Below, piece by piece: positions 1 to 26,194 of a stretch of DNA of 32,168 nucleotides. Position numbers and translations under genes: made by a program. The notes under the pieces were generated by a model. The model was not told where the DNA came from and searched no databases. It saw only the letters and a program-made list of their open reading frames with translations. Source of the stretch: Candidatus Thorarchaeota archaeon (GTDB taxonomy: Archaea; Asgardarchaeota; Thorarchaeia; Thorarchaeales; Thorarchaeaceae); contig JAWAQK010000025.1 in assembly GCA_038893995.1 (NCBI GenBank), forward strand, positions 1 to 32,168. The letters run 5' to 3'. Position 1 is the first letter of the stretch; each line of letters opens with the position of its first letter.

Positions 1-1411
1 GTATCACCAACTGGGCAAGGTCGTTGGCGATGTAGTCGAGTGCAGTGGAGTACGGCGGCGAGTTCACATTACCTCTTATCTCATGTATGTCCGAGATAGG
101 TTTCAGGTCGCTTGCATCAACCTCGTATACTCTTCCATGACCGACCCTTATTCCAAGAGTCGAATTGATCTGATTGAAGAGCAGAGCCCTCCGGCAGATG
201 TCCTCGACAACTCGGACCACTTCCTCTGCAAAGTTCTTTGTCTTCTTCCCCTTGAGATTGCTGATGCACATTGCAAGTGCCAGCCTCATGATGTTCTGAA
301 TGTCGCCCTTGAATATGCGTTCTACTATCAGTCTGGCAACTACCATCTCAGAGAGCACATCGTTTGTTGAGAACTCGTCATACACATCCGGGGCTGTTTC
401 ACGGATACCATCTATGATCGACTGGTCCAGTGGATAGGCAGGAGTGTCCAGGGTATCCTGCCCCTGCGACAGCGTCTTGAGGACCTTGAGTTCCCGCTGA
501 AGCGCAGAAACGAACGCGGAGGCCGCCTCATCCAGTGATGCTGGATCTACACGTAGGAGGGCACACTTGGCGTTTGCCATTAGGACGGACATCGGGTTGA
601 TCTCAGACCCACAGCTGTCTAGACCCATGAGACTCGCCTCGACCAGTAGGGTCCCACTGCCTGCGAAATTGTCCATCACAATACCTTCGTCCCTGGGCCA
701 TACCAGGTTTATCAGAGCTCTGGCCATCTTTGGATGGAACTTCCCCTTGTAAGGATGCATGCCGTGCGACAGATACAGAGAACACTCGCCCCTCTCTGCA
801 AAGTAGTCGAGAAGCCTCTTACCGACTCTTGCGCGCTCTGAGGCAGGTATCCGGTAGGTATGTCGTATCAGATTGTCGAACATACTGTCTACGAACTCTC
901 TCATTCTCTCGCGCGGGAGAGACTGTGTCACTCGTGTGATGTGTTCGGAGTTCTCGAGGAAGTACTGGTTGGTGATGATCCGGATCAGCGCAGTGTGGCC
1001 TACCTGAAAGGCATGACAGTTCTTCCCTAAGGCACCTTGAGGGAATATCCTTCTGAGCAGCGATTTCCATGAGTCCGCCTCGTCCACGACGTATATCTCT
1101 CTCGTGTACCCAAGCCTTCTCACAAGTCTGGGGATGTCATCAGGACGGACCTGCGTGCTCTCGAATCCCTGTACACGACCATATGCGCTCTCATGAGTCA
1201 GATAGTCCTGGAATCGGACAGAATCACTCTCATCGCCTCTCTTTGACACCTGGACGGCATCAGTGAACTCACTGAACGGGTGCTTCTTGAGAAGGTCTGC
1301 GGCGTTGCGCACGGGTACAACCGGACCTACTAGGCTCTCTAACTCGAGGCGCGCCAGCTCCACCTCATGATAGTCCTTGATGCTGTTGAATATCTTGAAG
1401 TAGGTGTACAT
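1..1411 (-). CDS. DNA amino-methyltransferase (m4C/m6A, SPPY-type, motif I before motif IV) with long N-terminal extension; runs off the left edge
   Basis: Not in the ORF track because there is no stop in the window. Manual translation from ATG 1411 is open to the edge: MYTYFKIFNSIKDYHEVELARLELESL...SHGMHPYKGKFHPKMARALIN...MDNFAGSGTLLVEA (SAM-binding motif I)...GSEINP...NVNSPPYSTALDY (catalytic motif IV). Confidence 0.85.
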   Translation of the reverse strand, partial: MYTYFKIFNSIKDYHEVELARLELESLVGPVVPVRNAADLLKKHPFSEFTDAVQVSKRGDESDSVRFQDYLTHESAYGRVQGFESTQVRPDDIPRLVRRLGYTREIYVVDEADSWKSLLRRIFPQGALGKNCHAFQVGHTALIRIITNQYFLENSEHITRVTQSLPRERMREFVDSMFDNLIRHTYRIPASERARVGKRLLDYFAERGECSLYLSHGMHPYKGKFHPKMARALINLVWPRDEGIVMDNFAGSGTLLVEASLMGLDSCGSEINPMSVLMANAKCALLRVDPASLDEAASAFVSALQRELKVLKTLSQGQDTLDTPAYPLDQSIIDGIRETAPDVYDEFSTNDVLSEMVVARLIVERIFKGDIQNIMRLALAMCISNLKGKKTKNFAEEVVRVVEDICRRALLFNQINSTLGIRVGHGRVYEVDASDLKPISDIHEIRGNVNSPPYSTALDYIANDLAQLVI

Positions 1412-1540
1412 CGTCGAGTTGCCTCTGACTACGGCAATCAGTTGTTGTGACAGTTGATAAACGTCCCTAATATGCAGATACCGCTCCTCCGCCTTTGTGA
1501 TACAAGGTTTGAAACGATAGTTGAGGGCCCGCATCCTATC

Positions 1541-4433: not shown

Positions 4434-5093
4434 CTAGGGCTTGCGCTTCCTGTGCGACCTGACTACGTCGAGGAACTTCCTGACGTTGTCCGCAATCACA
4501 TCGAACCGATTTTCTGCAATTGCCTTCTTGTCTGTGATTGCAGACCCAACTCCAAGGGCGAACACTCCTGCGTCGAGGAATGCACCTGCTGTGTCGAGTT
4601 CAACCCCGCCCGTGGGTATCAGTGGGATGTGTGGGATCGGGGCCCTGATGGCCCTTATGTAGTCTGCACCCCCGACATTACCGCACGGAAACACCTTGAC
4701 CGCGTCCGCGCCCATGCTGTACGCCTCCACGATCTCGGTCGGAGTGAGCGCACCTGGGAAGCACAGTTTCCCATGGCGCCTGGTCGTCTCGATCAGGTCC
4801 CTGGAATAGATCGGACTCACTATGAACTCGGCGCCCGCAGCGATCGCCTCGCGAGCAGTGGCGCCGTCCAGCACAGTGCCTGCTCCGACGAGCACTCTGT
4901 CACCGACCCTGTCTGTCAGCTCGCGGAGGACATCTGTGGCCTTCGGAACACTGAATGTGACCTCGACGATGTTTACTCCGCCATCAAGGAAAGCCTCTGC
5001 GACCCTCAGTGCTGTCGCCGATGACTCGACCCTGATGATTGGTATCAGTGCTGTCTCTCCAATGAGACTGAATGCCCTTGTTCTGTCCCACAT
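4434..5093 (-). CDS. eda: KDPG / 4-hydroxy-2-oxoglutarate aldolase (bacterial-type class I)
   Basis: IVEVTF, VGAGTV, FIVSP, TPTE, VKVFP (Schiff-base Lys), PTGGV; AGGTGAT SD overlapping the kdgK stop. Confidence 0.93.
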   Translation of the reverse strand: MWDRTRAFSLIGETALIPIIRVESSATALRVAEAFLDGGVNIVEVTFSVPKATDVLRELTDRVGDRVLVGAGTVLDGATAREAIAAGAEFIVSPIYSRDLIETTRRHGKLCFPGALTPTEIVEAYSMGADAVKVFPCGNVGGADYIRAIRAPIPHIPLIPTGGVELDTAGAFLDAGVFALGVGSAITDKKAIAENRFDVIADNVRKFLDVVRSHRKRKP

Positions 5094-5100
5094 GTTCGAA

Positions 5101-6093
5101 TCACCTCTGAATCCTGAGGCCTGCGCCCTTGAGTATTGTCTCGGCCTCCTCCTTGTTGAGGATCGCGAAGTCGCCTGGGATAGAGTGTTTTAGCGCGGAC
5201 AGGGCTCCTGCAAAGTCCACGGCCCTCTGTACGTCTTTCCACTCGAGGTAGCCGTAGATGAAGCCGGCGCTGCACGAGTCGCCAGCTCCCAGTCTGTCGA
5301 CTATCTCGACCTCAAACTTGGGACTGTAGTAGAACTTCCCGCCTGAGAGAGCAAAAAGGGACCAGACGTTTCTCCAGACCGACGGAGTCTCGCGCAGGGT
5401 GATGACAACCACCTCGAAGCCATATTTGTCAGACAGTTTCTGAGCGACCTCTTCGTACGTCTTTCCCTCTATCCCGTACACGATCTTGGTGTCCTCTTCC
5501 GTGGTGATCAGGATGTCGATGTCTCTCGAGATCGGCTCCGTGAACTCTCTGGCCTTAGCCGGACTCCACAGCTTGCCCCTGTAGTTGACATCGTACGAGA
5601 CCTTGCAGCCCTGTTCCATGGCCGTCTTGATGGCCTCTGCGGTCACTTCTGCGGCACTAGAACTGAGCGCAGGTGTGATTCCGCTTGTGTGGAACAGTCG
5701 GGCACCACTGAGGATCTTCGGCCAGTTCACTTCGCCTCTCTTTATCCTGCTTATGGCTGACATCTTTCTATCGTATATTACACGCTGCGCCCTCGGTGCG
5801 GCCCCGAACTCCAGGAAGTAGATTCCCACCCTCTCCTCTGGGTCCCAGACTATGTGTGATGTGTCGACCCCGTGCATCCTCGCCTGATTTCTCAGGAAGT
5901 GGCCCACCGAGTTGTCTGTGAGCTTGGTCACATAGGCGGCCCTAAGCCCAAGTCTTGCACAGGCAACAGCCACATTGAGTTCTGCTCCGCCGGCCCTTGC
6001 GACGAAGCTGTTAGTCTGTTCAATCCTCATGAAATCTGGCGGAGAGAGTCTCAGCATCACCTCTCCGAATGTCACGACGTCATAGGCCATCAT
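5101..6093 (-). CDS. kdgK: 2-keto-3-deoxygluconate kinase-like PfkB sugar kinase
   Basis: FGEVMLRLSP, GGAELNVA, SGITPALS, DVNYRGKLW, VDRLGAGDS, ALKHSIPGD; adjacent to eda. Confidence 0.9.
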   Translation of the reverse strand: MMAYDVVTFGEVMLRLSPPDFMRIEQTNSFVARAGGAELNVAVACARLGLRAAYVTKLTDNSVGHFLRNQARMHGVDTSHIVWDPEERVGIYFLEFGAAPRAQRVIYDRKMSAISRIKRGEVNWPKILSGARLFHTSGITPALSSSAAEVTAEAIKTAMEQGCKVSYDVNYRGKLWSPAKAREFTEPISRDIDILITTEEDTKIVYGIEGKTYEEVAQKLSDKYGFEVVVITLRETPSVWRNVWSLFALSGGKFYYSPKFEVEIVDRLGAGDSCSAGFIYGYLEWKDVQRAVDFAGALSALKHSIPGDFAILNKEEAETILKGAGLRIQR

Positions 6094-6105
6094 GTCACGC
6101 TCGCT

Positions 6106-6152
6106 TCATGTTAAAGTCGGTTATAATCGGAGTACATTCCTGGTGTTAAGTA
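6106..6152 (-). promoter_or_regulatory. Putative kdgK-eda promoter with TTAACA boxes
   Basis: Minus strand reads TACTTAACA...ATTATAA...TTTAACATGA in the GRE-kdgK gap. Confidence 0.4.
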
Positions 6153-6174
6153 TGTCGAGAGGGACATCTCAGAC

Positions 6175-8520
6175 CTATCGGGCCGAGAACTCAGTCCGGG
6201 CAATTATCTCATCCTGCACGAATGGATCGAGCTCGACGAAGTAGGCACTGAAGCCTGCAACTCTCACTATCAGGTTCCTGTACTGAGCAGGGTTCCTCTT
6301 GGCCTCTTCAAGCATCTCTCTCGAGACCACATTAAACTGGACATGAAGACCGCCCATTCTGAAGTACGCCTCGATCATGGCCGCGAACTTCCTACGGTTA
6401 TCTTCGTCGACGAAGATGTCCGGTGTGAACTTCATGTTGTAGAGCGTGCCATCGTATGCCAGTGAATGGTTCAACCGGCTGACTGACTTCATGGCGGCGG
6501 TTGGACCGTTGACGTCCTTGTTTCGGGCAGGCGAGACACCATCGGACAGCATCATCCCCGCCTTGCGTCCGTCGGGTGTCGCACCAAGCGTGTCCCCCAT
6601 CGGGATGTACATGCTGACAGAGAAGAGCCCTGCATGGTATGGTCCACTCCTTGTCGTCATCCTTGACTGGACCGACCTGCAGAAGGTCTCTCCGACCCTG
6701 CGCGCAAGAAGATCCACCCTCTCGATGTCGTTCCCGTACCGGACCGGGAAGTTCTCCAGTCTGACCCTGAGGTCCTCATGTCCCTCGAAGTCCCTTGAGA
6801 GTGCGTCCAAGAGAGTGTCCATCTTGATCCTGCCCTGTTCGAAGACAAGACTGCGCACTATCTCCATCGAGTCGGCAACTATTGCAATCCCTACGCCCAT
6901 GATGCCTCCGGAGTTGTACCTCGCTCCGCCTTCCTGCATTGTCCTGCCCGTCCTGATACAGCCATCAAGCAGGGCCGACACGAATGGTGTTGGGGCCAGC
7001 TCCGCATGGACTGTGGCAGCTATTCTGTCAGCACGAGTCAGGAGCTCAATTGTGTGATCGACCTGTTCTTCAAACGCACTCCAGAGCTGAGAGAACTCCC
7101 TGAACTCCCTTGGGTCTCCTGTTCTCTTTCCGACGAGAAGACCTGTCCTCGGATCCGTCCCGTTGTTCAGGGTGATTTCCATTATCTTTGGAAGATTGAC
7201 ATATCCAATGTTCGGCCTGGCATCGGTCTTGCCCTCGATTATGGGCTCGACGCAGCCAAGTATCGAGTAGTCGTGAGCCTCCTGGGGGTCCGTGCCCTTC
7301 TCCACCATCATCGGAATGATGACGTGGTCGTTGAACAGGCCTGGCATTCCGAGACCCTTCGAGATGACGTCCACGACCCTTGACATCATGCTGCTGGGTG
7401 TGCCCCTGTGCCATCTGAAGGACACAGTTGGCTGTGTCATCCGCACATTTGCGGTGGCCTCCAGGACCAGTTCTGTGACCGCATTGCAGCTGTCCTTACC
7501 ATCTCGGTCTTGGCCTCCGATCGTCAGATTCTGAAACATTGGGAAACCTGCAAATGCAACACTATAGTACTCGTCTCTCAGCTTTATGAGCGAACTCAGT
7601 TTTATCCAGAGCATCTCGAGCAACTCGAGGGCCCTCTGTCTGGTGATACGCCCCTCTCTCAGGTCTGTCTCATAGAATGGCAGCATGTACTGGTCGAACC
7701 TGCCAGTCGAGATAGAGTGCCCGTTCGACTCTGTCTGGACAAGAAGGTGGATGAACCAGAACGACTGGAGAGCCTCGTGGAACGACTTCGCTGGCGATGC
7801 TGGCACGACTGAGCATATTCTCGATATCTCGAGCAGTTCCTGACGCCTCTCTGGGTCGGACTCCCTGGCTGCAAGTTCTCTGGCCAACAGACTGAACCTA
7901 CGAGCAAACTCTATCGCGGCCTCAAGCGATATCTCGACGGCGGTGTAGAATTCGAACTCCGGACTCGGTGACCTGCACTGCTCTCGACGCTCTCTCGCCT
8001 CTCGAATGATGGACTCCAGTCCCTCGTTGAGGACCCTCCTGTAGTCGACCGTGACATGTCCGATACCCGTACCAGGTGCGCCGATAGTGTATAGACCCGC
8101 ACGAGCGCCAGCCAGCGATTCTGGTGGTATCCTGGCATTCGAGGCCTCGGCAGTGCTACGTCCCTTCCAGAACTTGAACACCTCTCTGAGAGTCGCCTTG
8201 TCCTCCTCACTCACGTGGAACCGTTCGGTCCTTCTCTTGTCCAAGCGATCCAGTTCTCTGTCTATCCACTCCCACGAGTACTCGGGAAAGACCTGGCATG
8301 ACCTTGGAGTGGGTCCCATGTTGCCCACTATGAGTTCCTCGGGCTCAATCCTGATTGTCATGTTTCTGAGCACGTGCGCGAATGCGCCAGCCATCCTGAC
8401 GACTGCTGGTTGATCGAGATGACTGCTGACATATTCCGTGAATAGTCTTGCCCGCTCTGCTGACAGGGTGGGCATTGCATCCAGCACTCGTTGTCTCATG
8501 CGCATCGTTCGCTCAGTCAA
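6175..8520 (-). CDS. Glycyl-radical enzyme (PFL2/diol-dehydratase-like eliminase clade), substrate unknown
   Basis: C-terminal LIVRVAGFSAYF glycyl loop, single-Cys GCVEP loop, SNGHSISTGRFDQY, AGFPMFQNLTIGG, ATPDGR; 781 aa. Confidence 0.93.
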   Translation of the reverse strand: MTERTMRMRQRVLDAMPTLSAERARLFTEYVSSHLDQPAVVRMAGAFAHVLRNMTIRIEPEELIVGNMGPTPRSCQVFPEYSWEWIDRELDRLDKRRTERFHVSEEDKATLREVFKFWKGRSTAEASNARIPPESLAGARAGLYTIGAPGTGIGHVTVDYRRVLNEGLESIIREARERREQCRSPSPEFEFYTAVEISLEAAIEFARRFSLLARELAARESDPERRQELLEISRICSVVPASPAKSFHEALQSFWFIHLLVQTESNGHSISTGRFDQYMLPFYETDLREGRITRQRALELLEMLWIKLSSLIKLRDEYYSVAFAGFPMFQNLTIGGQDRDGKDSCNAVTELVLEATANVRMTQPTVSFRWHRGTPSSMMSRVVDVISKGLGMPGLFNDHVIIPMMVEKGTDPQEAHDYSILGCVEPIIEGKTDARPNIGYVNLPKIMEITLNNGTDPRTGLLVGKRTGDPREFREFSQLWSAFEEQVDHTIELLTRADRIAATVHAELAPTPFVSALLDGCIRTGRTMQEGGARYNSGGIMGVGIAIVADSMEIVRSLVFEQGRIKMDTLLDALSRDFEGHEDLRVRLENFPVRYGNDIERVDLLARRVGETFCRSVQSRMTTRSGPYHAGLFSVSMYIPMGDTLGATPDGRKAGMMLSDGVSPARNKDVNGPTAAMKSVSRLNHSLAYDGTLYNMKFTPDIFVDEDNRRKFAAMIEAYFRMGGLHVQFNVVSREMLEEAKRNPAQYRNLIVRVAGFSAYFVELDPFVQDEIIARTEFSAR

Positions 8521-8548
8521 TGATCACACCACCGTTGTACAGTCTCAT

Positions 8549-9736
8549 TCATGTAGGATGACCCTGTCTCCTGAGCAGTCTCGGTAGGAAAGCGTCTAGC
8601 CGGCTGATTGCCTCTTCTATGACCTCTGTCGAGACTGCGTAGCAGAGGCGTACGAATCCCTCGCCATAGCTACCAAAGCCTGAACCGTGTACGAGTACCA
8701 CTCCCGTCTGCTTGAGGATCTCTACTGCAAGGTCGTACGACTTCATACCGAACTCCCGGACATCGGGAAACACATAGAATGCTCCAGCAGGTGGGTCGAG
8801 ATACACTCCCTCGATTGAATTCAGGCCCCTTGTGATGATGTCCCTGCGCCTACGGAACGTGTCGATCATCATCTTGACGCTGTCCTGCGGTCCCTCAACT
8901 GCAGCCTCAGCTGCCTTCTGGGATATCGATGTCGGCATCGATAGAACGTGTTCCTGGAGTTTGACCATGGCTGCGATGACATCCCTCGGTCCGGTGCAGA
9001 ACCCTATCCTCCAGCCTGTCATGGAGTACGATTTCGAGAACGAGAACAGGGAGATGCAGCGTTCCTTCATGCCTGACAACGAGCCCATGTATGTCGGTCT
9101 CTCATCGTCGTACCTGAACTTCTCGTAGGCCTCATCGGCAAGGATGTAGAAGTCGTGCTCGATGGCCAACTCAGCAATCCTCTCCATCTCCTTCCGTTGC
9201 GTGACTCCTCCGGTGGGATTGTTGGGTGAGTTGATGACGAGCAGTCTGGTCTTGTCAGTGATGACTCTCTCAACGTCCTCGGCCATCATGGAGAACTTGT
9301 TCTCTCTCCTTAGTGGGACGGGGACAGGCCTTCCACCCGCTAGCAGGACGTGGGCATGATGACTCACAAAGCCTGGATCTGGGTAGATGACCTCGTCGCC
9401 GGGATTCACGAGGACCAGATTGGCCAGGACAAGCGAACCCATTCCACCTGCGGTCATCATGATCTCGGTCTCGGGGTCTGCGTCGATGGAGTTCTCCCTC
9501 TTCAGCTTCCGTGCCATCGCCTCTCTGACCTCTATGAGCCCAGCGTTATGCGTGTATTTCGTGATTCCGTCGTCGATCGCCTTCTTGGCCGCCTCCTTGA
9601 TGTAGGCTGGCGTGTCAAAGTCTGGCTGACCGACAGTCATGTTAAGCACGTCTCTGCGTCCCTGGACCATGTTGAACATCTTTCGGATCTCACTGGCTGG
9701 GACTTGTCTGGCTCGTTCTGACAGGATCATGGACAT
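8549..9736 (-). CDS. PLP-dependent aminotransferase class I/II (AspC/AspB-like)
   Basis: GQPDF, NSPNNPTG, ADEAY, SFSKSYSMTGWRIG, VRLCYA. Confidence 0.93.
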   Translation of the reverse strand: MSMILSERARQVPASEIRKMFNMVQGRRDVLNMTVGQPDFDTPAYIKEAAKKAIDDGITKYTHNAGLIEVREAMARKLKRENSIDADPETEIMMTAGGMGSLVLANLVLVNPGDEVIYPDPGFVSHHAHVLLAGGRPVPVPLRRENKFSMMAEDVERVITDKTRLLVINSPNNPTGGVTQRKEMERIAELAIEHDFYILADEAYEKFRYDDERPTYMGSLSGMKERCISLFSFSKSYSMTGWRIGFCTGPRDVIAAMVKLQEHVLSMPTSISQKAAEAAVEGPQDSVKMMIDTFRRRRDIITRGLNSIEGVYLDPPAGAFYVFPDVREFGMKSYDLAVEILKQTGVVLVHGSGFGSYGEGFVRLCYAVSTEVIEEAISRLDAFLPRLLRRQGHPT

Positions 9737-9760: not shown

Positions 9761-9780
9761 CTTATATAGAATGTTAAAGT
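9761..9780 (-). promoter_or_regulatory. TATA-like box upstream of the aminotransferase
   Basis: Minus strand ACTTTAACATTCTATATAAG about 25-45 nt before the ATG, consistent with a leaderless or short-leader archaeal transcript. Confidence 0.45.
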
Positions 9781-9876
9781 GACCTCCAACTCAGGTCGGG
9801 AAGCTAAATCGATGCCTGCCCCCTGTCCGTGCAGATGTTTAATAGAGGTTTTAGTCTCAGTGATTCAGGTACTGCC

Positions 9877-10395
9877 ATGACCCAACCTACAGCTGAGGAA
9901 GTCAGAAAGAGGAACATGTTCACTCTCGCCAGTGCCCACGCTGTCTATGTGGAATGCATGAGAGAGAACTACGGCGAGCCGGGGCTAAGAGCGCTTGGTG
10001 AGGCGAACCGGCTTCACGGTCTGAGGCTCGGGCTGGAGGCTGTGGAACAGGGCGCTCTTCGCAGGGGTGACCTGAGGTCCATCTTTGAGTTCTTTCGGGC
10101 GGCCTATCCGTTCTTCGGGTTCGAACTGTCACTCGATACGGTCACCGACGACATAATTGAGATCAGGGTGACTCGTTGCCCGTGGATAGATGGGTTCAGG
10201 GCAAACCGTGCAGGTGCTGACATATGTCACTGGGTCTGCATGATCGACCACGGGATTGGACAGGCAGTAGACCCAACCCTTGAACTGAGTCTGCCTGTCT
10301 GCATGATGCGTGGCGATGAGTATTGCATCTACCGCTTTCGCAAGTCGACAACGAGTCCGACACATCACCGGCGCACTCAGATGCAAGGACGGTGA
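9877..10395 (+). CDS. V4R-like / L-2-amino-thiazoline-4-carboxylate hydrolase (ATC_hydrolase)-family protein
   Basis: IRVTRCPW, DICHWVCMID, CMMRGDEYCIYRF Cys pattern; ATG 9877 preferred over GTG 9829. Confidence 0.75.
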   Translation: MTQPTAEEVRKRNMFTLASAHAVYVECMRENYGEPGLRALGEANRLHGLRLGLEAVEQGALRRGDLRSIFEFFRAAYPFFGFELSLDTVTDDIIEIRVTRCPWIDGFRANRAGADICHWVCMIDHGIGQAVDPTLELSLPVCMMRGDEYCIYRFRKSTTSPTHHRRTQMQGR

Positions 10396-10560: not shown

Positions 10561-11643
10561 ATGGTCGATGCTCTCAGGGTCAGGGCCTATAACGTGGGCC
10601 TGGGAGACTGCATTCTTGTCACCATTCCCGCAGGTCGAGAACGGAGGCATATCCTGATCGACTTTGGTAGTACGCGAGGTAAGGACAAGCCCTACCTCAG
10701 TTCTGTCCTGAAGAACGTCCTTGAGGAAGTGTCTGGCGACCCACTCGCGGTGGTGCTCTCGCATGGCCACATGGACCACTTCAAGGGCCTTCACAACCAT
10801 CTTGCCGAGTTGGACCCCGTGACAAAGGTCTTTCTCACAACGCAGCACCTGAGGACTTCGGACACGATCAGAGCGGGAACCAGGGATGGTCCGATCCTCA
10901 AGGCATTGGATGGGGTCCTAAAAGACATCAAGTCCAGGCTGAGAGCAGAGGGCGCAGACGAGGAAACAAGGTCGTTGGCTGAGGAGAGGATCTTGACCGA
11001 CCAGATGCTCGACGAACTCTGCAGGGGACTGGGAGGTAGGGTCCGTTATCTATCGCGTGGTACAAGGGGGGTCCTCTCTCCGTTCCTGCGCGGAACAGGG
11101 GCAGACATCGGGGTGCTGGCCCCGGAGCAGGATGGCTCAGTATATGCAGAGAGAGTGTTTTCAAAGATCCTGCCAGCGAGAGAACGCACCGGGCTCCTCG
11201 GGAGCAAGCTGGCGAACGCAATCAGGGACAGGATGGGTGAGAGAGTGCCCATCAGAGATCTACTCATGGCGGAACGAGAGTATGACAACTCGACCAGCCT
11301 GGTGTTTGTACTCACATGGAGGGGTAAGCGACTGCTGTTCCCTGGTGACGCCGAGCTGCCAAGCTGGGAAACCATGTACAGGAATGGTCTCCTTGGACCT
11401 GTCGATCTGCTCAAGGTCGCCCACCATGCCAGCGTCAACGGTACACCTCTCGGGCTGCCCGAGTTATGGTCGTCGATGGTTGACCCGGACCGGAGACCCA
11501 AATTCCTCGTGTCCACGTACCCCCGAAAGGACTGGAACATACCCGACAGAAACCTCCTGAGGGCCCTAGGTGGATTCGGCCAGGTGGTGACCACGGAGGG
11601 CGTCGATGGCCATCCAGGCTTCGTAGACATCTCTCTGAGCTAG
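10561..11643 (+). CDS. Metallo-beta-lactamase-fold hydrolase (ComEC/Rec2-like MBL domain, soluble)
   Basis: YNVGLGDC, LIDFG, SHGHMDH, NSTSLV, FPGDAE, KVAHHAS. Confidence 0.85.
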   Translation: MVDALRVRAYNVGLGDCILVTIPAGRERRHILIDFGSTRGKDKPYLSSVLKNVLEEVSGDPLAVVLSHGHMDHFKGLHNHLAELDPVTKVFLTTQHLRTSDTIRAGTRDGPILKALDGVLKDIKSRLRAEGADEETRSLAEERILTDQMLDELCRGLGGRVRYLSRGTRGVLSPFLRGTGADIGVLAPEQDGSVYAERVFSKILPARERTGLLGSKLANAIRDRMGERVPIRDLLMAEREYDNSTSLVFVLTWRGKRLLFPGDAELPSWETMYRNGLLGPVDLLKVAHHASVNGTPLGLPELWSSMVDPDRRPKFLVSTYPRKDWNIPDRNLLRALGGFGQVVTTEGVDGHPGFVDISLS

Positions 11644-11758: not shown

Positions 11759-12889
11759 CTACAAGTACAGGGGATATCGGCCCCGCTTCTCAGCGTAATC
11801 GTACATCAGTACGATCTTCTCCGGTGCCGAGTCCGGCTGGATGTTGTGCGCTGGGGCCAGAATATACCCGCCGCCAGGGGCAAACGCTCTGAGCCTGGTA
11901 TCTATCTCACTCTTCAGGTCTTCGACGGTCCCCTCTGCAGACATCGCCCTCTGAAGATCGATCCCGCCGTGAAACACCAGTCTGTCTCCGTACTTGGCCT
12001 TAAGATGAGAGGAGTTCATCCCCTTGGCAAGTGGCTGCACCGGATTCAGTATGTTGACACCGATCTCGATCAGGTCGTTGATGAGAGGCTCAATTGCCCC
12101 GCAGCTGTGATAGAGCAGTTCCACGTGGGGCGCCCGCGAGTGTATGTCAGAGTATATCTTCTTGAGTCGGGGCTTTATCAAGTCTCGAAACATCTCAGGA
12201 CTCATGATGAGACCATTCTGATGACCCAGGTCGTCTCCGACCTGCACGACGTCGAGGTACTCGCCTACCCCATCGAGAAAGACCCTGTTCATGTCGAGTG
12301 CCAGTTTCATTGCCTTGTCCAGCATCGCCTCGGCAAGTGCTCTGTTCTCGACCAGGTCGTAGAGAAACCTCTCGAACCCTCTCATGAAGTGGGCACATAT
12401 CTCAAAGACTCCCCACGGACCTCCGACCATGCCAATGACGGCATACTCGTCATCATCGTGAAGTCTGCTGGCCCATTCCTCAACACCTTCCATCCTCGAG
12501 GGGTCCTCAGGGTCCAGCCATTCGTAGTCACGCACCTGGTCGACGTCTGTAAACTCCGCCCACGGATAGTGCACGACTTCCCAGTACGGGCCAATCCATT
12601 TCCCTCGGAAGCCCCACTCGGTGTCTGTGCTGCCATCGGGGTATGTCTTTGGCTGGAAGGAGGCTGACGGATTCATGTAGACCCTCCTGAAGTCGATATG
12701 GAGCCTCCGCAGCATCTCCTCCGATATCTTCCAGCTGCTCATTATGCCCCATTCCTGTGTCTCGGGTGCGTCAATTCCGAGGTATCTCTTCAGGTTCTGA
12801 TATGCGGCTGGGGTGATCCAGAGGTCCATTGGCACCCGGTCTGGTTCCTCATGGCTCACGCATCTGAGGAATCGCTCGCGCGGTTTCAC
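11759..12889 (-). CDS. Uroporphyrinogen decarboxylase (UroD/MtaA/CmuA) superfamily protein
   Basis: MKPRER...PDRVP, GDDLG, MSPEMF, YHSCG, LNPVQ, FHGGID, GGGYILAPAHNIQ. Confidence 0.88.
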   Translation of the reverse strand: MKPRERFLRCVSHEEPDRVPMDLWITPAAYQNLKRYLGIDAPETQEWGIMSSWKISEEMLRRLHIDFRRVYMNPSASFQPKTYPDGSTDTEWGFRGKWIGPYWEVVHYPWAEFTDVDQVRDYEWLDPEDPSRMEGVEEWASRLHDDDEYAVIGMVGGPWGVFEICAHFMRGFERFLYDLVENRALAEAMLDKAMKLALDMNRVFLDGVGEYLDVVQVGDDLGHQNGLIMSPEMFRDLIKPRLKKIYSDIHSRAPHVELLYHSCGAIEPLINDLIEIGVNILNPVQPLAKGMNSSHLKAKYGDRLVFHGGIDLQRAMSAEGTVEDLKSEIDTRLRAFAPGGGYILAPAHNIQPDSAPEKIVLMYDYAEKRGRYPLYL

Positions 12890-13325: not shown

Positions 13326-15005
13326 CTATAAGAATGGTGACTTTCGCAAGGACCAGTGGTATACACAATACCATGGAGCGTCAATGGCGTTACTATTCGA
13401 GGCGTCGGACATGCAGCACGACCGGTTGACACAGTACAACTCTGTGCCTTGGGCATCAGTCACGATTATGCCGGCGCGGTGACCACATTCGTGGAGCAGT
13501 GTCACCTTCGTCCATCTTCTGAAGATCTGACCAGTGGACTCCCCGGCCGCGCTGGTTATCAAGCCGTCAAAGATCGCAATTCCAGAGTCACCTGTACTGA
13601 GCTGGAAGTACAGACCTAGGGCGTTTGGTATCTCCAAACTCCTGTCAGCTATCAGGACCCACAAGTAGTTCGAATCTCCCTTGTGATCGGAGTACTGTAT
13701 CCAGTACGTTACGAGATCGTCGAAACTGGTGGGACTGTCGTAGGGCACGCCTTCGTCAATGTAGTAATCGTACCTACCATATCCATGGAGTCTGTAGTAC
13801 CATTTGACATAATCTGCTGTTGCCGCGATGTCAGAGAGAGCCATTATCGGAGTATTTTGAGCAGGGGGACTCTCCCACATGTAGTCGATCTCTAGCATGC
13901 AAGCTCTGTAGTTGAATGCGTTGTATGTCAGTTTCTTTCCGTAATACGGCGTTGCACTGTCCATTAGCTTCAATCTCACGTATACAGACTGCGCGAGGTT
14001 GTAGTCTCCGAAACCGATACTGTACGAAGCACCAGTGAGGACCGTCGTCCGGTACGTCCAGGCGTCAAGGGGAGACAATTTCGTGTAGATTTCGATCAGC
14101 GTTGCGCTACCGACCTCATTCTGAACGCATAGGTACAGTTGCGATACTGGCCCTCCGAGCACCTCGTAGTCCAGTATAGGATATGCACCATGAGGGAAGT
14201 ATTCCCAGAAATCTTGTATAGGTTCTGGGGGATACGGCCAACGACTGACGAATGGTTGGATATAGAGCAGTTTCCACTGGTGCTCCTTCCAACCGCAGTT
14301 GTATATCTCAAGCTCGATCCTGTGCTCCCCGGCAGCGACCCACCAGACTGAAACGTATCCGCTGAATCCGCTGCTTATCGTGGTACGGTAAACTACTTGT
14401 CCATCAAAATAGACCGTGAAGTATCTGGGGTATTCGTCCTGATCTCTCACGATGTTTATCCAGATGTCGAGAGTTGTGATGTAATTGGGATACGTGAACT
14501 TGAAGGCAAGGATCGAGTACGACGTCTGGGGGAACCAATGTCCGCTCTTGGCCGGACTCATGACTGGCTGGGGATATAGATGAGTCGGAGACATAGGGTA
14601 GTAGATCGTGCTTGGCGTTGCGGCGCTCGTCGTGTAGTCGCTGCCCGATTCGCGTGCAACGAGGTTCTGTTGAGGAGCCGAGTCCTCCAGAGTTGAGCAT
14701 GTCATGTTCCCGACCCATCCCTGATGGCAGGAACTTCCTGATGTGCTTGTGATCCCGCTCGGTGCTTTCGAAGCCGCAGTTTCCTGCTTCGCATCGATCT
14801 CGATCCAGTCACGAGACATGGCGTCAAGTATCTGTCTCTCTACTACTGAAGTGTAATCCGTATCCACCTCTCCGTGAGCTCCCTGCGCGTCTGTGACACC
14901 CTCGCCAGAAGTCACAGGAGTGAATGATGGATATAGAAACACTGAGCAGAGCACCACGAGTGCTATGGGTAGCACTATGCCTTTCTCTACTGTCTTTCGC
15001 CTCAA
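13326..15005 (-). CDS. Secreted or membrane-anchored zinc metalloprotease (HExxH, archaemetzincin-like C-terminus) with two beta-rich repeats
   Basis: N-terminal basic plus hydrophobic segment (RRKTVEKGIVLPIALVVLCSVFLY), Ser/Thr-rich linker, TLLHECGHRAG...C-x4-C-x-M...CxxH. TTG 15005 follows GGAGG; the track start is 15068. Confidence 0.7.
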   Translation of the reverse strand: MRRKTVEKGIVLPIALVVLCSVFLYPSFTPVTSGEGVTDAQGAHGEVDTDYTSVVERQILDAMSRDWIEIDAKQETAASKAPSGITSTSGSSCHQGWVGNMTCSTLEDSAPQQNLVARESGSDYTTSAATPSTIYYPMSPTHLYPQPVMSPAKSGHWFPQTSYSILAFKFTYPNYITTLDIWINIVRDQDEYPRYFTVYFDGQVVYRTTISSGFSGYVSVWWVAAGEHRIELEIYNCGWKEHQWKLLYIQPFVSRWPYPPEPIQDFWEYFPHGAYPILDYEVLGGPVSQLYLCVQNEVGSATLIEIYTKLSPLDAWTYRTTVLTGASYSIGFGDYNLAQSVYVRLKLMDSATPYYGKKLTYNAFNYRACMLEIDYMWESPPAQNTPIMALSDIAATADYVKWYYRLHGYGRYDYYIDEGVPYDSPTSFDDLVTYWIQYSDHKGDSNYLWVLIADRSLEIPNALGLYFQLSTGDSGIAIFDGLITSAAGESTGQIFRRWTKVTLLHECGHRAGIIVTDAQGTELYCVNRSCCMSDASNSNAIDAPWYCVYHWSLRKSPFL

Positions 15006-15833
15006 CCGACAACCCCTCCAACGGATTGTCACAGAGGTCTTGTCTTCAACGCTTAAGAATCTTGCCACTTCTCGCCCATTTGCCGCACGACTCCGGAGAG
15101 AGGGCAGTCAGAACCACGGAAGTCTCGTTGTCTGTTCCCCTATCCCTCGCCAATCGTAGGTGCGAGAGAGCCTACGACGAGTAACTGAGAGGAGACGATG
15201 AAACTGTTCTTCCCGCTGCAACAAGGTTCGCGATGCCGGGCTGCTATCTGCCATGTGCGCCGTCCGATGCTGTCCCCTGGTGGCCAGATTCCTCGCGAAC
15301 TGGACCTTAGACCCTCCCGCTGGGGATCTGGAGTTACTGACGGAGGGGGGCGTTCTGAGTCGGGTCAGTATATGCCGATCAAGATCCCCACTTGCTGTGC
15401 GTGACCAGTTGACTCCTGAGGTCGATGAAACACGGCTCAATCAATATCGACAGACGACATTGGTAAACATCTACAGTGGTTCACGAGTGTATTGCAGAGA
15501 GTAGCCCGCGATGAGTGAGGTACGTGATACTGCCTGTGGTATCGACCCGAGGGGCCACCTCACAGACGCGATATCTCCAGGCCGTTCATCGTTCCCCGCT
15601 CTTGCGTCCTGGGCACAGCATTCAGGATACATGTCTTCAGATTCTCGCAGGACGGCGGGGCAGCTCAGTTCTGCTCGCTCAGTGATCCCTCCTGGCTCAC
15701 ACGCCTCATGGTTCGTTCACACGACCTCATTGCGTACCCCCTCTTCTCGTCTAGTAACTTGACACGATACGGTATCTTGCCCCCTGTACTTGCTTCATCT
15801 AGTCCCTTGAAGATGTCCGAATGTCCCGATGGA

Positions 15834-16295: not shown

Positions 16296-16948
16296 CTGTA
16301 CAATGGGGGAGCGTCAATACGAACCAGGGCCATACCCTCCGATCTAGTTCCAGATCCCGTTTGACCACTCTCCATGCTCATGTTTACAGATGCTCTGTCG
16401 AATGGAAGCTCAGGTCAACGGACCGAGTCCTGCGCTGAGATAACCTCTTGATAGATAACTCTTCGCAGCTTTCTAGAAATACGACACGCCCCCGACATAC
16501 ATTACTGCGCTCTCAAGCAACATCGGGAGTCGTAGTGGTCTGACAGTTCGATCCTGCGCCTCCAGCTGCATCCTCGATGATTCCCGCTGAGAATGAACCG
16601 GCCATCATAGCTCCTCTTCTCTGCTGGTCCACGCTCCCTCAGCCACCAGCTCTGCTCGTATGACAAGATCCAGCCAAGTCTGTCAGTGGGTAACGACCAG
16701 CAGATCGACCATAGTCCCCTGCGACTGGTTGATTCTCATCGATGACACACCATGGCCTGAGGACAGTTTCAGGTGCGTACGAACCACTCATTCAGTCATT
16801 GTGCACCGTGATACGTGCCGTCCACTGTCTTGAGGTCTCACATATTGGCCGCGGACATACCGTGACGAGCACCCAAGAGTGCTGCAAGGCTGTGCTTAAG
16901 TTGTTTCTTGTTGAGAGACTTCGCAGGCTCACACCTCAGGTGATCTGC

Positions 16949-18568
16949 TTGGACCGTCATGATGAGACCTTGACAGTCACCATTGAACCAGGACATCTGA
17001 CGATACAGACACGTCCGATGACTCTCCTAGAGGTGCTGAGGAGGAATGGTATTCTTGTCGAATCAGTCTGCGGTGGTCGTGGGAGATGCGGCAAGTGTCT
17101 GGTCGTTACGACGCCAGCACCTCCTCCCTCACTGACTGACAGGAGCCACCTGAACCCTGAAGACGTCGCCAGGGGCGTTCGACTGGCATGTCAACATTTC
17201 GTGACTGACGGTCTGGTCGTCCGTATAGCCTCAAGAGACGGTCATCTTCCCCTGCTCGAACCAGGAGTACGTCTCACCCCGCGTGTGTACGATCGTCCGT
17301 GGGAGAGCGACATCGGTATCGCCATCGACGTTGGGACCACGACCGTGAGCTACTACATTGTCGGACTACCGAGCGGCAACCTGCTCTGCGAGGCCTCTCA
17401 CGTCAATCCTCAGGTCTCATTCGGTACCGATGTGATAGCGAGGATAGAGTATGCATCTGATCACGAAGACGGAGTGCAGGTACTCAGAGAAGTGCTTCTC
17501 AGATCCATTGACCATGCAATACACCGTATATGCGATTCTGTTCAGTCATCGTGCGACCAGATCCGAAGGGTCAGCGTGGTTGGGAACACCGCAATGACGC
17601 ACATCCTCCTGGGTCTGGATCTCAGGCCACTGGGTCGGGCTCCCTACAGTCCCGTGTCTGTGAGTTCACGAGAGCTGTCTGCTGCTGAGCTGGGGCTGAG
17701 TTCATGTCCGGAAGCCAGAGTCTACACGGCTCCCATGGTCGCAGGTTTCGTCGGCGGTGACACGGTAGGGTTTGTGATGGCACAGTCAATTGACCAACAT
17801 GATGGGGTTGTGCTCGGCATCGATATAGGGACCAACACCGAGATTGTGCTGGGTGGAAGGGATGGTCTATGGTGCTGTTCTGCTGCAGCAGGCCCAGCCT
17901 TCGAGGGTGCTACTATATCCCGGGGCATGAGAGCCGAACCGGGTGCCATATCCCACGTGAGTATCAACGATCCGGATGGTGCTCCGCTACTTGAGGTCAT
18001 TGGAGATGAGCAGACGCCGCGGGGACTGTGCGGCTCTGGCATACTGGACCTCGTTGCGGAGATGACCCGCGCGGGCATTGTCGACTGTTCTGGATCGCTA
18101 GTCAGGTCCCGCAGAGTCATTGATGTAGGACCCTACGGACGGGCCTATCTTGTACATCAGGACGACAGGGGTCACTCCCTATTGTTCACACAGGATGACG
18201 TCAGACAGGTGCAGCTGGCAAAGGCCGCAATAGCAGCTGGGGCCGCAACGCTCATGAGGACACACGGAATCTCGCCTTCCCAGTTAGACGTGGTATACAT
18301 TGCTGGGGCATTCGGCTCTCATCTCTCACCCACCAGCGCACTGACAATTGGCATGCTACCCCCTGTCAGTGCCGACAGAGTGATCAGTGTGGGGAATGCG
18401 GCTGGAGTTGGAGCCAGGTCGCTCCTGCTATCGGCAGAGGCCCGCAGACGCGCCTCGAGGATTGCGCGTGCCATGGTGTACACAGAACTGGTCCGGACAC
18501 CCATCTTCCGCGACCTGTTCTTGCAGGCGACGCTTCTTGGGCAGACAGACATCTGGACCGGCACCTAG
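16949..18568 (+). CDS. ATP-dependent corrinoid reductive activator (RamA/RACo, ASKHA ATPase with N-terminal 2Fe-2S domain)
   Basis: CGGRGRCGKC...RLAC, IDVGTTTV, NPQ.SFG.DVI.RI, VGNTAM, GFVGGD, DIGTNTE, AAGPAFEG, LCGSG, AGAFG, GNAA. TTG 16949 follows an AGGTGAT SD; the track start is 16742. Confidence 0.9.
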   Translation: MDRHDETLTVTIEPGHLTIQTRPMTLLEVLRRNGILVESVCGGRGRCGKCLVVTTPAPPPSLTDRSHLNPEDVARGVRLACQHFVTDGLVVRIASRDGHLPLLEPGVRLTPRVYDRPWESDIGIAIDVGTTTVSYYIVGLPSGNLLCEASHVNPQVSFGTDVIARIEYASDHEDGVQVLREVLLRSIDHAIHRICDSVQSSCDQIRRVSVVGNTAMTHILLGLDLRPLGRAPYSPVSVSSRELSAAELGLSSCPEARVYTAPMVAGFVGGDTVGFVMAQSIDQHDGVVLGIDIGTNTEIVLGGRDGLWCCSAAAGPAFEGATISRGMRAEPGAISHVSINDPDGAPLLEVIGDEQTPRGLCGSGILDLVAEMTRAGIVDCSGSLVRSRRVIDVGPYGRAYLVHQDDRGHSLLFTQDDVRQVQLAKAAIAAGAATLMRTHGISPSQLDVVYIAGAFGSHLSPTSALTIGMLPPVSADRVISVGNAAGVGARSLLLSAEARRRASRIARAMVYTELVRTPIFRDLFLQATLLGQTDIWTGT

Positions 18569-18614
18569 CCCTACCGTTCAATTTATCAGAATCGGGTCCA
18601 CAGATTGGCCAAAG

Positions 18615-19673: not shown

Positions 19674-19704
19674 AGGTGGAAGTACCTCATTCACTCGGTT
19701 AGCG

Positions 19705-24646: not shown

Positions 24647-26194
24647 ATGAGCGGTCAGGACAAGCTCTTGTTTGTGCGTGAAAGCTCCGGTCTCGTGAAG
24701 GAGGTCGGACCATGGTTCGCGCTTTTGTTGCCAATTGCGTTGACCGTGGGCCCCTACTTCCACTTTGTGGCCCCACAGGTGTCAACCTGGTTCCCTGGCG
24801 CACACCTAGTTCCGGTGTTTGCGGTGGGTACCTTTGCGATACTGTGGGAAGGCATAGGCACGATGTGTCTCATGTTGGCGATGCCACGGTCTGGGGCTAG
24901 CTATCACTTCGTGGGCAGAGGTCTCCATCCGCTGTTCGGTGTGATGGAAGGCTGGCGGTCTGTGATCACGAACCCTGTCTTCAGAGGTTCTGCCAGCTTC
25001 TTTGCTGCACGTGTGTCTGCTGGCGGTTTCGTCGTAATCGGCGTCATAACCGGTAACCAGGCCCTGGTTGACATCGGAAACGCCCTGAGCAGCACCACAG
25101 ACTACGTACCCGTAGTCATCCTTGCGCTGGTACTTACGGCTATCGCCTTCATATTCAGCTACCTGAGCGTGAAGACGCTTGGATGGTTCGTCGTGATACT
25201 TGGCACGATCAACATCCTGGCTGTCATCGTCGCAGATGCTGTGCTGCTCTCAACCAATGTCGCCTCGATATGGGACACAGTAATGCCGGCCGGAAGAAGA
25301 GTGGCAGACCTGATGGCGACGTCATGGATCACAGACATCAATGCGTACACGACCCTGAACCTGGGCGCAGTGGCCGCTGCACTGACAACTGCCGTCGGTA
25401 TCATGTGGCCATATCTGATAATGCCGGTTGCGGGTGAAGTGTCACAGCCCAGCAGGAACATTCCGCTGAGCTGTCTCGGTGGAGTTGTCGGTATCGGTGC
25501 TCTGTTCATGCTGTCGGCCTACGCCGTCGAGTCAAGCATGGGCACGCTCCTGTACTGGAACAACAGCTCCAGCGTCGGTGTGTTCCCCGGCATTGGAAAC
25601 TTCGCCGCGATCGCACTTGCAGCGAACCCAGCACTTGCCATCTTCGTGGTCCTTGGTCCACTCTACGCCAGCACACTGGATGGGCCAAGCAACGCCCTGT
25701 GGGTGACGAGGCCATTCCATGCAATGGCAATGGACAGAATGTGTCCTGAAATAATGGCTCAGATCCATCCAAAGTACCATGTACCTCACATAAGCCTGTA
25801 CTACTGGCTGATTGTCCAGGTGGCAATCATTGTGATGGCCATATGGTACGACGTGTCCATTGCAATCGGAGTGCTGTTCACGTACACCTTCATCCGGTGG
25901 CAGTTCACACTGGTTGAGATCTCGCTGCCATACTACCGACCGACTCTCTGGGAGCGATCCGGTGCTTGGAAGATACTTGGCTTCCCGTTGGTCTCCCTCG
26001 CAGGTCTGATCAGCGGTGCTGTGTTCTTCTACGCACTGATCAGCTTCACTCCGAGTGCAGGTGTGCCCTTCGAGACTCTGTTCACCGTAGCCGTCTACCT
26101 ATTCGGTCAGCTGATGTACATGTACTACGGTGCAAAGAACAAGGCGAAGGGTGTGGACATGGCAGCCATCTTCGGTCAGTTGCCGCCAGAGTAG
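24647..26194 (+). CDS. APC-superfamily amino acid/polyamine permease
   Basis: LFVRESSGLVKE N-terminus, AMPRSGASY, AGEV..P, AMAMDRM.P...HPKY..P, many hydrophobic TM segments, C-terminal IF.QLPPE. Confidence 0.88.
   Translation: MSGQDKLLFVRESSGLVKEVGPWFALLLPIALTVGPYFHFVAPQVSTWFPGAHLVPVFAVGTFAILWEGIGTMCLMLAMPRSGASYHFVGRGLHPLFGVMEGWRSVITNPVFRGSASFFAARVSAGGFVVIGVITGNQALVDIGNALSSTTDYVPVVILALVLTAIAFIFSYLSVKTLGWFVVILGTINILAVIVADAVLLSTNVASIWDTVMPAGRRVADLMATSWITDINAYTTLNLGAVAAALTTAVGIMWPYLIMPVAGEVSQPSRNIPLSCLGGVVGIGALFMLSAYAVESSMGTLLYWNNSSSVGVFPGIGNFAAIALAANPALAIFVVLGPLYASTLDGPSNALWVTRPFHAMAMDRMCPEIMAQIHPKYHVPHISLYYWLIVQVAIIVMAIWYDVSIAIGVLFTYTFIRWQFTLVEISLPYYRPTLWERSGAWKILGFPLVSLAGLISGAVFFYALISFTPSAGVPFETLFTVAVYLFGQLMYMYYGAKNKAKGVDMAAIFGQLPPE

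Follow-up and report, generated by a model that had tools for sequence, protein, structure and literature searches.

A glycyl radical enzyme encoded beside KDG kinase-like and KDPG aldolase genes in Thorarchaeia: a candidate radical entry into an Entner-Doudoroff-type pathway

Contig JAWAQK010000025.1 of the Candidatus Thorarchaeota archaeon assembly GCA_038893995.1 (positions 1 to 32,168, forward strand) was analysed over its full stretch of 32,168 nucleotides, which is referred to as the window in the following. It carries a row of four minus-strand genes for a class I aminotransferase (AT), a glycyl radical enzyme (GRE), a PfkB-family kinase resembling 2-keto-3-deoxygluconate (KDG) kinase (KIN, KdgK) and an Eda-type aldolase acting on 2-keto-3-deoxy-6-phosphogluconate (KDPG) or 2-keto-4-hydroxyglutarate (KHG) (EDA). 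Judged from sequence and gene context, there is about an even chance that the GRE is a new radical 1,2-eliminase making KDG for KdgK and Eda from an imported hexonate or 2-amino-2-deoxyhexonate. The more general proposal, according to which Thorarchaeia possess an oxygen-sensitive 'radical Entner-Doudoroff entry' with this GRE dehydrating, or dehydrating and deaminating, such an acid to KDG, is put somewhat short of even. New in this GRE 1,2-eliminase would be the pocket, the pathway context and the archaeal host.

Conservation and co-inheritance of the gene row

AT (8549..9736, minus strand; 395 amino acids, PF00155) heads the row and is followed on the same strand by GRE (6175..8520; 781 amino acids, PFL-like and Gly_radical domains), KIN (5101..6093; 330 amino acids) and EDA (4434..5093; 219 amino acids). 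Pfam places AT in Aminotran_1_2 (E 4e-73) and KIN in PfkB (E 1e-44). Four co-oriented genes with gaps of 28, 81 and 7 nt had been reported in a preliminary description of the window, and these figures are exact according to open reading frame (ORF) coordinates, Pfam and NCBIfam. Two TATA-like boxes can be read in the minus-strand sequence. The first, TATATAA at 9762..9768, lies 26-32 nt 5' of the ATG of AT and possibly marks a leaderless transcript, while the second, ATTATAA at 6121..6127, lies within the 81-nt gap, 28-34 nt 5' of the ATG of KIN, and is a possible internal promoter for kinase and aldolase. Since both boxes are found about 30 nt upstream of a start codon, the row may consist of two leaderless units, AT-GRE and KIN-EDA.

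Orthologs of the GRE with 64-69% identity were found in 35 Asgard loci, counting one genome per species. The order AT-GRE-KIN-EDA is conserved in about 30 Asgard loci, wherever the flanks suffice, and the spacing recurs too. As the same order and spacing return in about 30 loci at 64-73% identity, the arrangement is not due to chance. Among the 45 nearest bacterial GRE loci, in contrast, neither kdgK nor eda was found near the GRE gene (0/45). The order GRE-kinase-aldolase survives the insertion of a histidine-kinase gene between GRE and kinase, as seen in genus g4 (genome G027, L107:9772-13215). This insert encodes a multi-PAS histidine kinase of 1147 amino acids, which may be a dedicated sensor of the pathway; as a clue to the substrate it was discarded, being uninformative in that respect.

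Presence and absence of the genes were compared across 86 genomes of the host's family. GRE, KIN and EDA occur together in about 60 of them, while all three are missing from about 21, including genomes that are 93-98% complete, and their presence is concordant within five genera of mixed content (g2, g6, g9, g11 and g14). In genus g14, the trio is gone from between AT and the downstream thioredoxin and EamA genes. In one genome of 97% completeness (G055; L028 and L106), GRE is a pseudogene with three in-frame stops and KIN a pseudogene with two, the two lying on different contigs, and the permease, URO-D-like and RraA-like genes described below are missing as well. Hence, this genome looks like a case of a pathway caught in decay. 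A different behaviour is seen for the SCP2-like gene that stands 3' of eda in most loci: almost every genome without GRE has it, and the present genome carries it on a different contig, so that it does not covary with GRE. The SCP2-like, FAD_binding_4 and CCG genes of this region were rejected as parts of the pathway. Parallel decay at separate loci, together with neighbours that do not covary, argues for a functional coupling of GRE with kdgK and eda, to which the GRE orthologs are linked both physically and in presence/absence.

Enzyme identities and the altered pocket of the GRE

The closest structure to KIN in the PDB is KDG kinase of Thermotoga maritima (2afb, 289 bits). When aligned to the Thermus thermophilus enzyme (1v19), six of six positions are conserved (Y89, Y103, R105, I134, R167 and D251). 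This Tyr/Tyr/Arg/Ile/Arg/Asp set reportedly contacts KDG in the T. thermophilus kinase (Ohshima 2004). KIN scores below the NCBIfam cut-offs of KDG_KDGal_kin_Halo (303 bits, cut-off 440) and of the kinase part of the fusion model NF041633 (377 versus 700), and it has no second close copy in the genome. EDA exceeds the cut-off of TIGR01182 (190 bits, cut-off 156), and its nearest natural structure is KDPG aldolase of T. maritima (1wa3/1vlw); it is the single match in its own genome, and genomes across the family searched likewise show a single match. KIN and EDA hence look like a genuine pair of KDG kinase-like enzyme and KDPG aldolase, and from their nearest structures and the conserved KDG-contact positions a 2-keto-3-deoxy-hexonate appears to be a real intermediate.

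Relatives of KIN outside Thorarchaeota reach 59-63% identity. On a contig from Thermodesulfobacteriota (L120:4560-11719), genes for the TRAP transporter DctQMP, a 2-hydroxyacid dehydrogenase, a PfkB kinase (59% identical to KIN), Eda and an RraA-like protein form a row in which no dehydratase was found; the trio KdgK/Eda/RraA-like thus recurs in bacteria. The slots taken in Thorarchaeota by APC permease, AT and GRE are filled there by an importer of carboxylates and an enzyme that acts at C2. A radical SAM gene next to the bacterial KdgK-Eda-RraA cluster was considered as a GRE activase and rejected, as it is none.

The host assembly (2.33 Mb on 82 contigs) is a metagenome-assembled genome (MAG) of 91% completeness. 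The missing of IlvD/Edd, enolase-family and UxuA/UxaA dehydratases, initially noticed for the window, holds for this entire genome: family searches found none of IlvD/Edd, UxuA, UxaA/GarD, UxaC and KduI, nor an acid-sugar dehydratase of the MR/MLE type, the sole enolase-superfamily match being the glycolytic enolase. The GRE gene is single in the genome, and one GRE activase scores above the cut-off (TIGR02494, 310 bits versus 174; contig C46, 16422-17279). It is not located beside GRE but adjoins an isopentenyl phosphate kinase gene, 4.5 kb from an aldehyde:ferredoxin oxidoreductase gene. This AA_kinase member and the one next to a related GRE (group P0121, see below) belong to distinct families, isopentenyl phosphate kinase and glutamate 5-kinase, with 24% identity, and the apparent parallel was dropped.

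In Pfam, the GRE matches PF02901 (PFL-like, E 2e-212) and PF01228 (Gly_radical, E 5e-32). It passes the subfamily model for PFL2/glycerol dehydratase (TIGR01774, 780 bits versus a cut-off of 678), while no NCBIfam equivalog cut-off is reached: the HypD, CutC, HpfG/HpsG and PflD equivalogs give 545-623 bits at cut-offs of 1000-1109. It is no PFL proper either, given a GCVEP loop without the Cys-Cys pair and 154 bits for TIGR01255 (cut-off 994). The glycyl radical motif R-V-A-G756-F-S (residues 753-758; 6247..6264, minus strand) and the Cys loop G422-C423-V-E425-P (7243..7257, minus strand), the CXE motif of GRE 1,2-eliminases and isomerases, were read directly; the single-Cys GCVE loop of the preliminary description is therefore present as GCVEP. 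'1 TGA' flags in GRE matches, checked as possible selenocysteine codons, turned out to be natural stop codons of shorter orthologs.

Full-length alignment to glycerol dehydratase of Clostridium butyricum (1r8w) reveals which parts of the active site were kept. C423 and E425 of the single-Cys loop, invariant within the clade, align with C433 and E435 of 1r8w, and H155, the ESNGHS motif and G756 are retained as well. In contrast, Asp447 is replaced by Asn437, Trp445 by Arg435, Tyr339 by Phe329, Tyr640 by Phe633 and Ser642 by Val635. In glycerol dehydratase, Asp447, Tyr339 and Tyr640 reportedly contact the C3 hydroxyl of glycerol, in addition to the pair His164 and Glu435 (O'Brien 2004). Of this residue set, the GRE keeps His and Glu, whereas the positions of Asp447, Tyr339 and Tyr640 are occupied by other residues. 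His164 of glycerol dehydratase acts as the acid that protonates the departing hydroxyl group (PMC13450708).

Two segments around the pocket differ more strongly. Where glycerol and propanediol dehydratases have E-G-W-H-D447-(S/A)-A-F-F-N, the GRE has the hairpin D433-A-R435-P-N437-I-G-Y-V-N (7195..7224, minus strand), in which alignment A1 shows no variation at D433, R435 and N437. In the shortened loop A-P-G-T-G-I-G-H155 (8056..8079, minus strand), the general-acid His is kept, while one residue is deleted and the aromatic stretch N-Y-Y-Y/F-N is lost. All Asgard clade members bear the new loop and hairpin motifs, invariant in an 18-sequence alignment. The propanediol dehydratase motifs NY[YF][YF]NGVGH, GWHDAAFFN and GLYP[VA]SANVP, by comparison, are common to 45/45 nearest bacterial homologs; the GRE agrees with propanediol dehydratase only at the positions of Phe329 and Val635, and differs in loop and hairpin. 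Given scores below every equivalog cut-off and pocket residues unlike those of glycerol and propanediol dehydratase, the GRE is, on the sequence evidence, not a specificity-retaining copy of any characterised enzyme. It would rather be a GRE of the 1,2-eliminase type with a pocket unlike that of any of them.

The clade is also isolated. Within a single Asgard family its members share 64-73% identity, whereas identity to everything else does not exceed 46%, the 45 nearest bacterial homologs lying at 40-46%. Among 1.84 billion representatives of a library clustered at 50% identity, only one stands for the entire clade (67% identity), followed by the next relative at 44%. The best PDB match is glycerol dehydratase 1r8w (722 bits), before propanediol dehydratase 5i2a (673 bits), the uncharacterised 9rco, CutC, PflD/YbiW, HypD and others. 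In a FastTree tree, the clade branches outside the one formed by glycerol and propanediol dehydratases. It is joined there by P0121 and P0126 (SH-like support 0.994), two groups of uncharacterised enzymes that also have the shortened loop and a D-x-R hairpin. Clustering with a characterised enzyme whose specificity residues are retained was therefore not observed.

One of these two sister groups adjoins proB, an SSF symporter and opine-oxidase-like genes, and the second one saccharopine dehydrogenase, a GntR regulator and an M20 peptidase. Another near relative, P0122, has a sugar ABC transporter, xylulokinase, aldehyde:ferredoxin oxidoreductase and cupin-type glucose-6-phosphate isomerase as neighbours. 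P0122, with an R-x-N hairpin, is one of the GREs of a second GRE system on Logan contigs (L110/L112, 947-17679), which comprises the sugar ABC transporter, two GRE-activase pairs, a xylulokinase above cut-off, the oxidoreductase and isomerase just named and a 2-hydroxyacid dehydrogenase. It probably represents a radical pentose or pentitol route.

A proposed radical route to KDG and competing explanations

The module exceeds the four genes of the row, since an APC-superfamily permease, a URO-D-like and an RraA-like gene belong to it as well. The permease (24647..26194, plus strand; 515 amino acids, PF00324), a candidate importer, shows the same presence/absence pattern as GRE, KIN and EDA in the 86 genomes; homologs of it were found in Thor-type archaea only, and a PDB search yielded no relative. 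The divergent URO-D/MtaA-like protein (11759..12889, minus strand; 376 amino acids, PF01208, E 5e-29) has a remote match only to MtaA (4ay7). Its phyletic pattern is that of the module, and genome G305 bears a pseudogene copy. The RraA-like gene follows the module's pattern too and is present in most genomes. The present genome is without it, and the slot of this aldolase/decarboxylase is taken by an MBL-fold gene (10561-11643, plus strand) with weak matches to anti-phage Avs1a and 6A-MBL models.

In the proposed pathway, the substrate would probably be imported by the co-inherited APC permease; reaction, substrate, residue roles and order of steps are predictions. The lone activase encoded on contig C46 would install the radical at G756, from where it would be relayed to C423. 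The C423 thiyl radical would then take a hydrogen atom from C2, which bears a hydroxyl or amino group next to the carboxylate, and E425 and H155 would help the C3 hydroxyl or alkoxy group to leave. Return of the hydrogen atom would give KDG or 2-keto-3-deoxygalactonate (KDGal) directly or, as in HypD, a 2-imine that is hydrolysed to KDG. R435 and N437 might hold the anionic group. Finally, KdgK would phosphorylate KDG or KDGal, and Eda would cleave the product into pyruvate and glyceraldehyde-3-phosphate. Alternatively, the kinase could act first, with the GRE converting a 6-phosphohexonate.

That the GRE supplies the substrate of KdgK at all is evenly balanced. Within this probability, plain hexonates (candidates are gluconate, mannonate, altronate and galactonate) and 2-amino-2-deoxyhexonate take roughly even parts, with a smaller share left to ether or anhydro acids. 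In favour of an amino-acid-like substrate are the co-inherited APC permease, the adjacent AT and the sister GREs in amino-acid-type contexts, while the dispensable AT and the unchanged NGHS motif speak against it.

Several points weigh against the proposed route. The nearest tree neighbours, P0121 and P0126, are found in amino-acid-type rather than sugar-acid loci, and the closest solved relative works on a C3 substrate. The co-inherited URO-D-like and RraA-like genes find no place in the simple scheme. Three clade members (L019, L021 and L028) are located in another context with 2-oxoacid oxidoreductase and thermosome genes, L019 and L021 on short contigs. Joint loss could follow from physical linkage alone, and genomes of related organisms do not count as independent samples. 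A dehydratase might sit in the missing part of the 91%-complete MAG, so that its absence is not fully secure. Moreover, acid/base dehydratases readily make KDG, and a plain hexonate therefore needs no radical chemistry.

Among the alternatives, the one surviving best assumes that the GRE belongs to the same pathway or regulon but acts on a small anionic vicinal diol or amino alcohol (glycerate, glycerol phosphate or a dihydroxypropane-type acid, for example) alongside KDG catabolism, while KDG itself is imported or made by an unrecognised enzyme. The nearest solved relatives, 1r8w and 5i2a, are indeed C3-diol dehydratases, the GRE retains the catalytic Glu/His pair characteristic of diol dehydration, and the dehydratase-free row of Thermodesulfobacteriota, combining KdgK, Eda and RraA-like genes with TRAP and 2-hydroxyacid dehydrogenase, indicates that other routes to KDG-like acids exist. 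However, the loss of three aromatics from the His loop and the changes in hairpin and strand argue for a different and probably larger substrate. Aldehyde dehydrogenase, alcohol dehydrogenase and microcompartment genes, which usually accompany small-diol GREs, were not found beside the GRE, and it would have to be explained why the GRE is so strictly co-inherited with kdgK and eda and decays together with them. Hence, this alternative is regarded as rather unlikely.

A second alternative unites GRE, AT and APC permease in the conversion of an amino-acid-type substrate, such as a hydroxylated amino acid, with kdgK-eda as a co-travelling module of the same island. Such a role would agree with the loci of the sister GRE groups and their tree support of 0.994, with the co-inheritance of the APC permease and with the position of AT at the head of the gene row. 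The AT, whose nearest structures are the Pyrococcus horikoshii aspartate/aromatic aminotransferases (AspAT/ArAT; 1gd9 and 1dju) and which has paralogs of 40% and 31% identity in its own genome, stands 5' of GRE in 32/36 clade loci. Its ortholog, however, is kept in unrelated contexts in four genomes without GRE, KIN and EDA (G164, G161, G257 and G224). AT is for this reason no obligatory member of the pathway and only loosely coupled to the GRE, which weakens the earlier assignment of AT to the pathway, although its adjacency to the GRE stands. Together with this survival of AT orthologs, the parallel decay of GRE and kdgK at separate loci of G055 and the persistence of the order GRE-kinase-aldolase despite insertion of a histidine-kinase gene render a purely amino-acid-related function improbable.

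In the literature, these Asgard enzymes have been interpreted solely in terms of hydrocarbon activation, the GREs of Hermod- and Thorarchaeota having been reported as alkyl- or benzylsuccinate synthases on the basis of 29-33% identity to AssA/BssA and a single Cys (PMC8163825). This reading, with which the name 'benzylsuccinate synthase alpha subunit' of one database entry for a homolog agrees, is practically untenable for the present GRE, which scores far higher with glycerol dehydratase (722 bits) than with benzylsuccinate synthase alpha (300 bits) or MasD (319 bits), contains the CXE motif and the eliminase His, and has kdgK and eda instead of small-subunit and beta-oxidation genes, which were not found nearby; sequence and context thus appear to contradict it.

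A radical route to KDG would fill a gap in the present picture of the family. The known GRE eliminases are glycerol dehydratase, propanediol dehydratase, HpfG, HypD, HpyG, HpzG, CutC, IslA/IseG and HpsG, with HplG, YbiW and PflD as isomerases, and all characterised representatives are bacterial, while for PFL-like GREs of archaea no function has been characterised and the archaeal clades form an open gap (PMC13450708, a review of June 2026). The claim that no such GRE had been described in archaea thus holds for characterised function, but not for occurrence: GRE homologs (E<=1e-100) are encoded in 207 of 301 sampled Asgard genomes, many of them with at least three paralogs at 33-41% identity to this GRE, and a structure from Archaeoglobus exists (2f3o). 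With so many genomes carrying homologs, often several each, the Asgard phylum holds a large unexplored GRE repertoire. Full-text literature searches gave no report in which a GRE is connected with KDG kinase, KDPG aldolase or 2-keto-3-deoxy acids, in line with the initial statement that no described GRE feeds KdgK/Eda. If the proposed route is true, this GRE would be the first of the archaeal PFL-like enzymes to be assigned a function and the first of all GREs with a sugar acid as substrate. GRE chemistry would thereby be extended to sugar acids or amino-sugar acids as a substrate class, and the compact module of permease, GRE, activase, kinase and aldolase would offer the first physiological role of an archaeal GRE that can be put to the test. 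Likewise, carbon-cycling inference for the abundant Asgard archaea of sediments would shift from alkane or aromatic degradation to the fermentation of carbohydrate-derived acids.

Neighbouring genes and comparison with known systems

Upstream of the row, an ATC_hydrolase-like gene (9829..10395, plus strand; PF14196) is transcribed divergently from AT and is syntenic in most loci. This family and that of the S-Me-THD-like (DUF917) protein encoded at 28026-29144 (minus strand) are both linked to thiohydantoin or thiazoline ring chemistry. A corrinoid methyltransferase set occupies 16742-20373 (plus strand) and consists of a RACo-type reductive activase (16742-18568), a URO-D-family methyltransferase (18387-19673) and a B12-binding corrinoid protein (19705-20373). 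In related loci (L091), an MttB-family gene is found instead. The set suggests a demethylation of methoxylated or N-methylated compounds. It is followed by a FAD_binding_4 gene (distantly GlcD-like) and a CCG/HdrD-like iron-sulfur subunit gene (20513-23088, plus strand). In most related loci, a second FAD_binding_4/CCG copy with the SCP2-like gene lies directly 3' of eda, where the present genome has small ORFs and a methylase instead, suggesting a local rearrangement or insertion. A DNA methylase-like ORF is located at 2-1534 (minus strand), a Mrr_cat restriction endonuclease-like ORF at 23657-24469 (plus strand) and a 580-amino-acid ORF with neither Pfam nor NCBIfam match at 13326-15068 (minus strand). 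A Zn-dependent dehydrogenase (TDH/IolM/IdnD-like), upstream in seven loci, was rejected as a core glucose-dehydrogenase step, as it has no ortholog in this genome.

Among the known systems, glycerol dehydratase DhaB1 of C. butyricum (1R8W/1R9D) and propanediol dehydratase of Roseburia inulinivorans (5I2A) are the closest to the GRE and share with it the glycyl radical motif, the GCVEP loop with its Glu, the general-acid His of G-x-G-H and ESNGHS. The GRE Phe and Val at Tyr339 and Ser642 of glycerol dehydratase agree with 5I2A, while Asn, Arg and Phe replace Asp447, Trp445 and Tyr640, and the shorter AP-GT stands for NYY(Y/F)N. Unlike these two enzymes, the GRE has no adjacent activase, microcompartment or aldehyde-processing genes, and its host is an archaeon.

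The C-O lyases YbiW/PflD of Escherichia coli, acting on 1,5-anhydroglucitol- or mannitol-6-phosphate, resemble the proposed route in that a deoxy-keto sugar product is cut by an adjacent class I aldolase, FsaA (PMC13450708). CXE and His are present in both, and an Arg of YbiW aligns with R435, where glycerol and propanediol dehydratases have Trp. As matches to the GRE, however, these lyases are weaker (538-547 bits) and belong to a distant tree branch; moreover, they use a phosphorylated anhydro-sugar and a transaldolase-type aldolase, whereas the partners of the GRE are a KDG kinase and a KDPG aldolase. In HypD, the trans-4-hydroxy-L-proline dehydratase, the radical is formed on the nitrogen-bearing carbon, the adjacent hydroxyl group leaves and an imine results (PMC13450708), which is the chemistry that a 2-amino-2-deoxyhexonate substrate of the GRE would need. 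The GRE differs from HypD in score (equivalog 607 bits at a cut-off of 1100; PDB 6vxc 508 bits) and in keeping NGHS, and an amine-binding acidic residue was not seen in this motif.

With respect to the pathway, the semi-phosphorylative Entner-Doudoroff and uronate pathways, in which gluconate, mannonate or altronate dehydratase is followed by KdgK and Eda, have the same downstream half, the closest counterparts being TM0067/TM0066 of T. maritima. In the present genome, where enolase-superfamily, IlvD/Edd and UxuA/UxaA enzymes for this step were not found, the dehydratase slot is occupied by the GRE.

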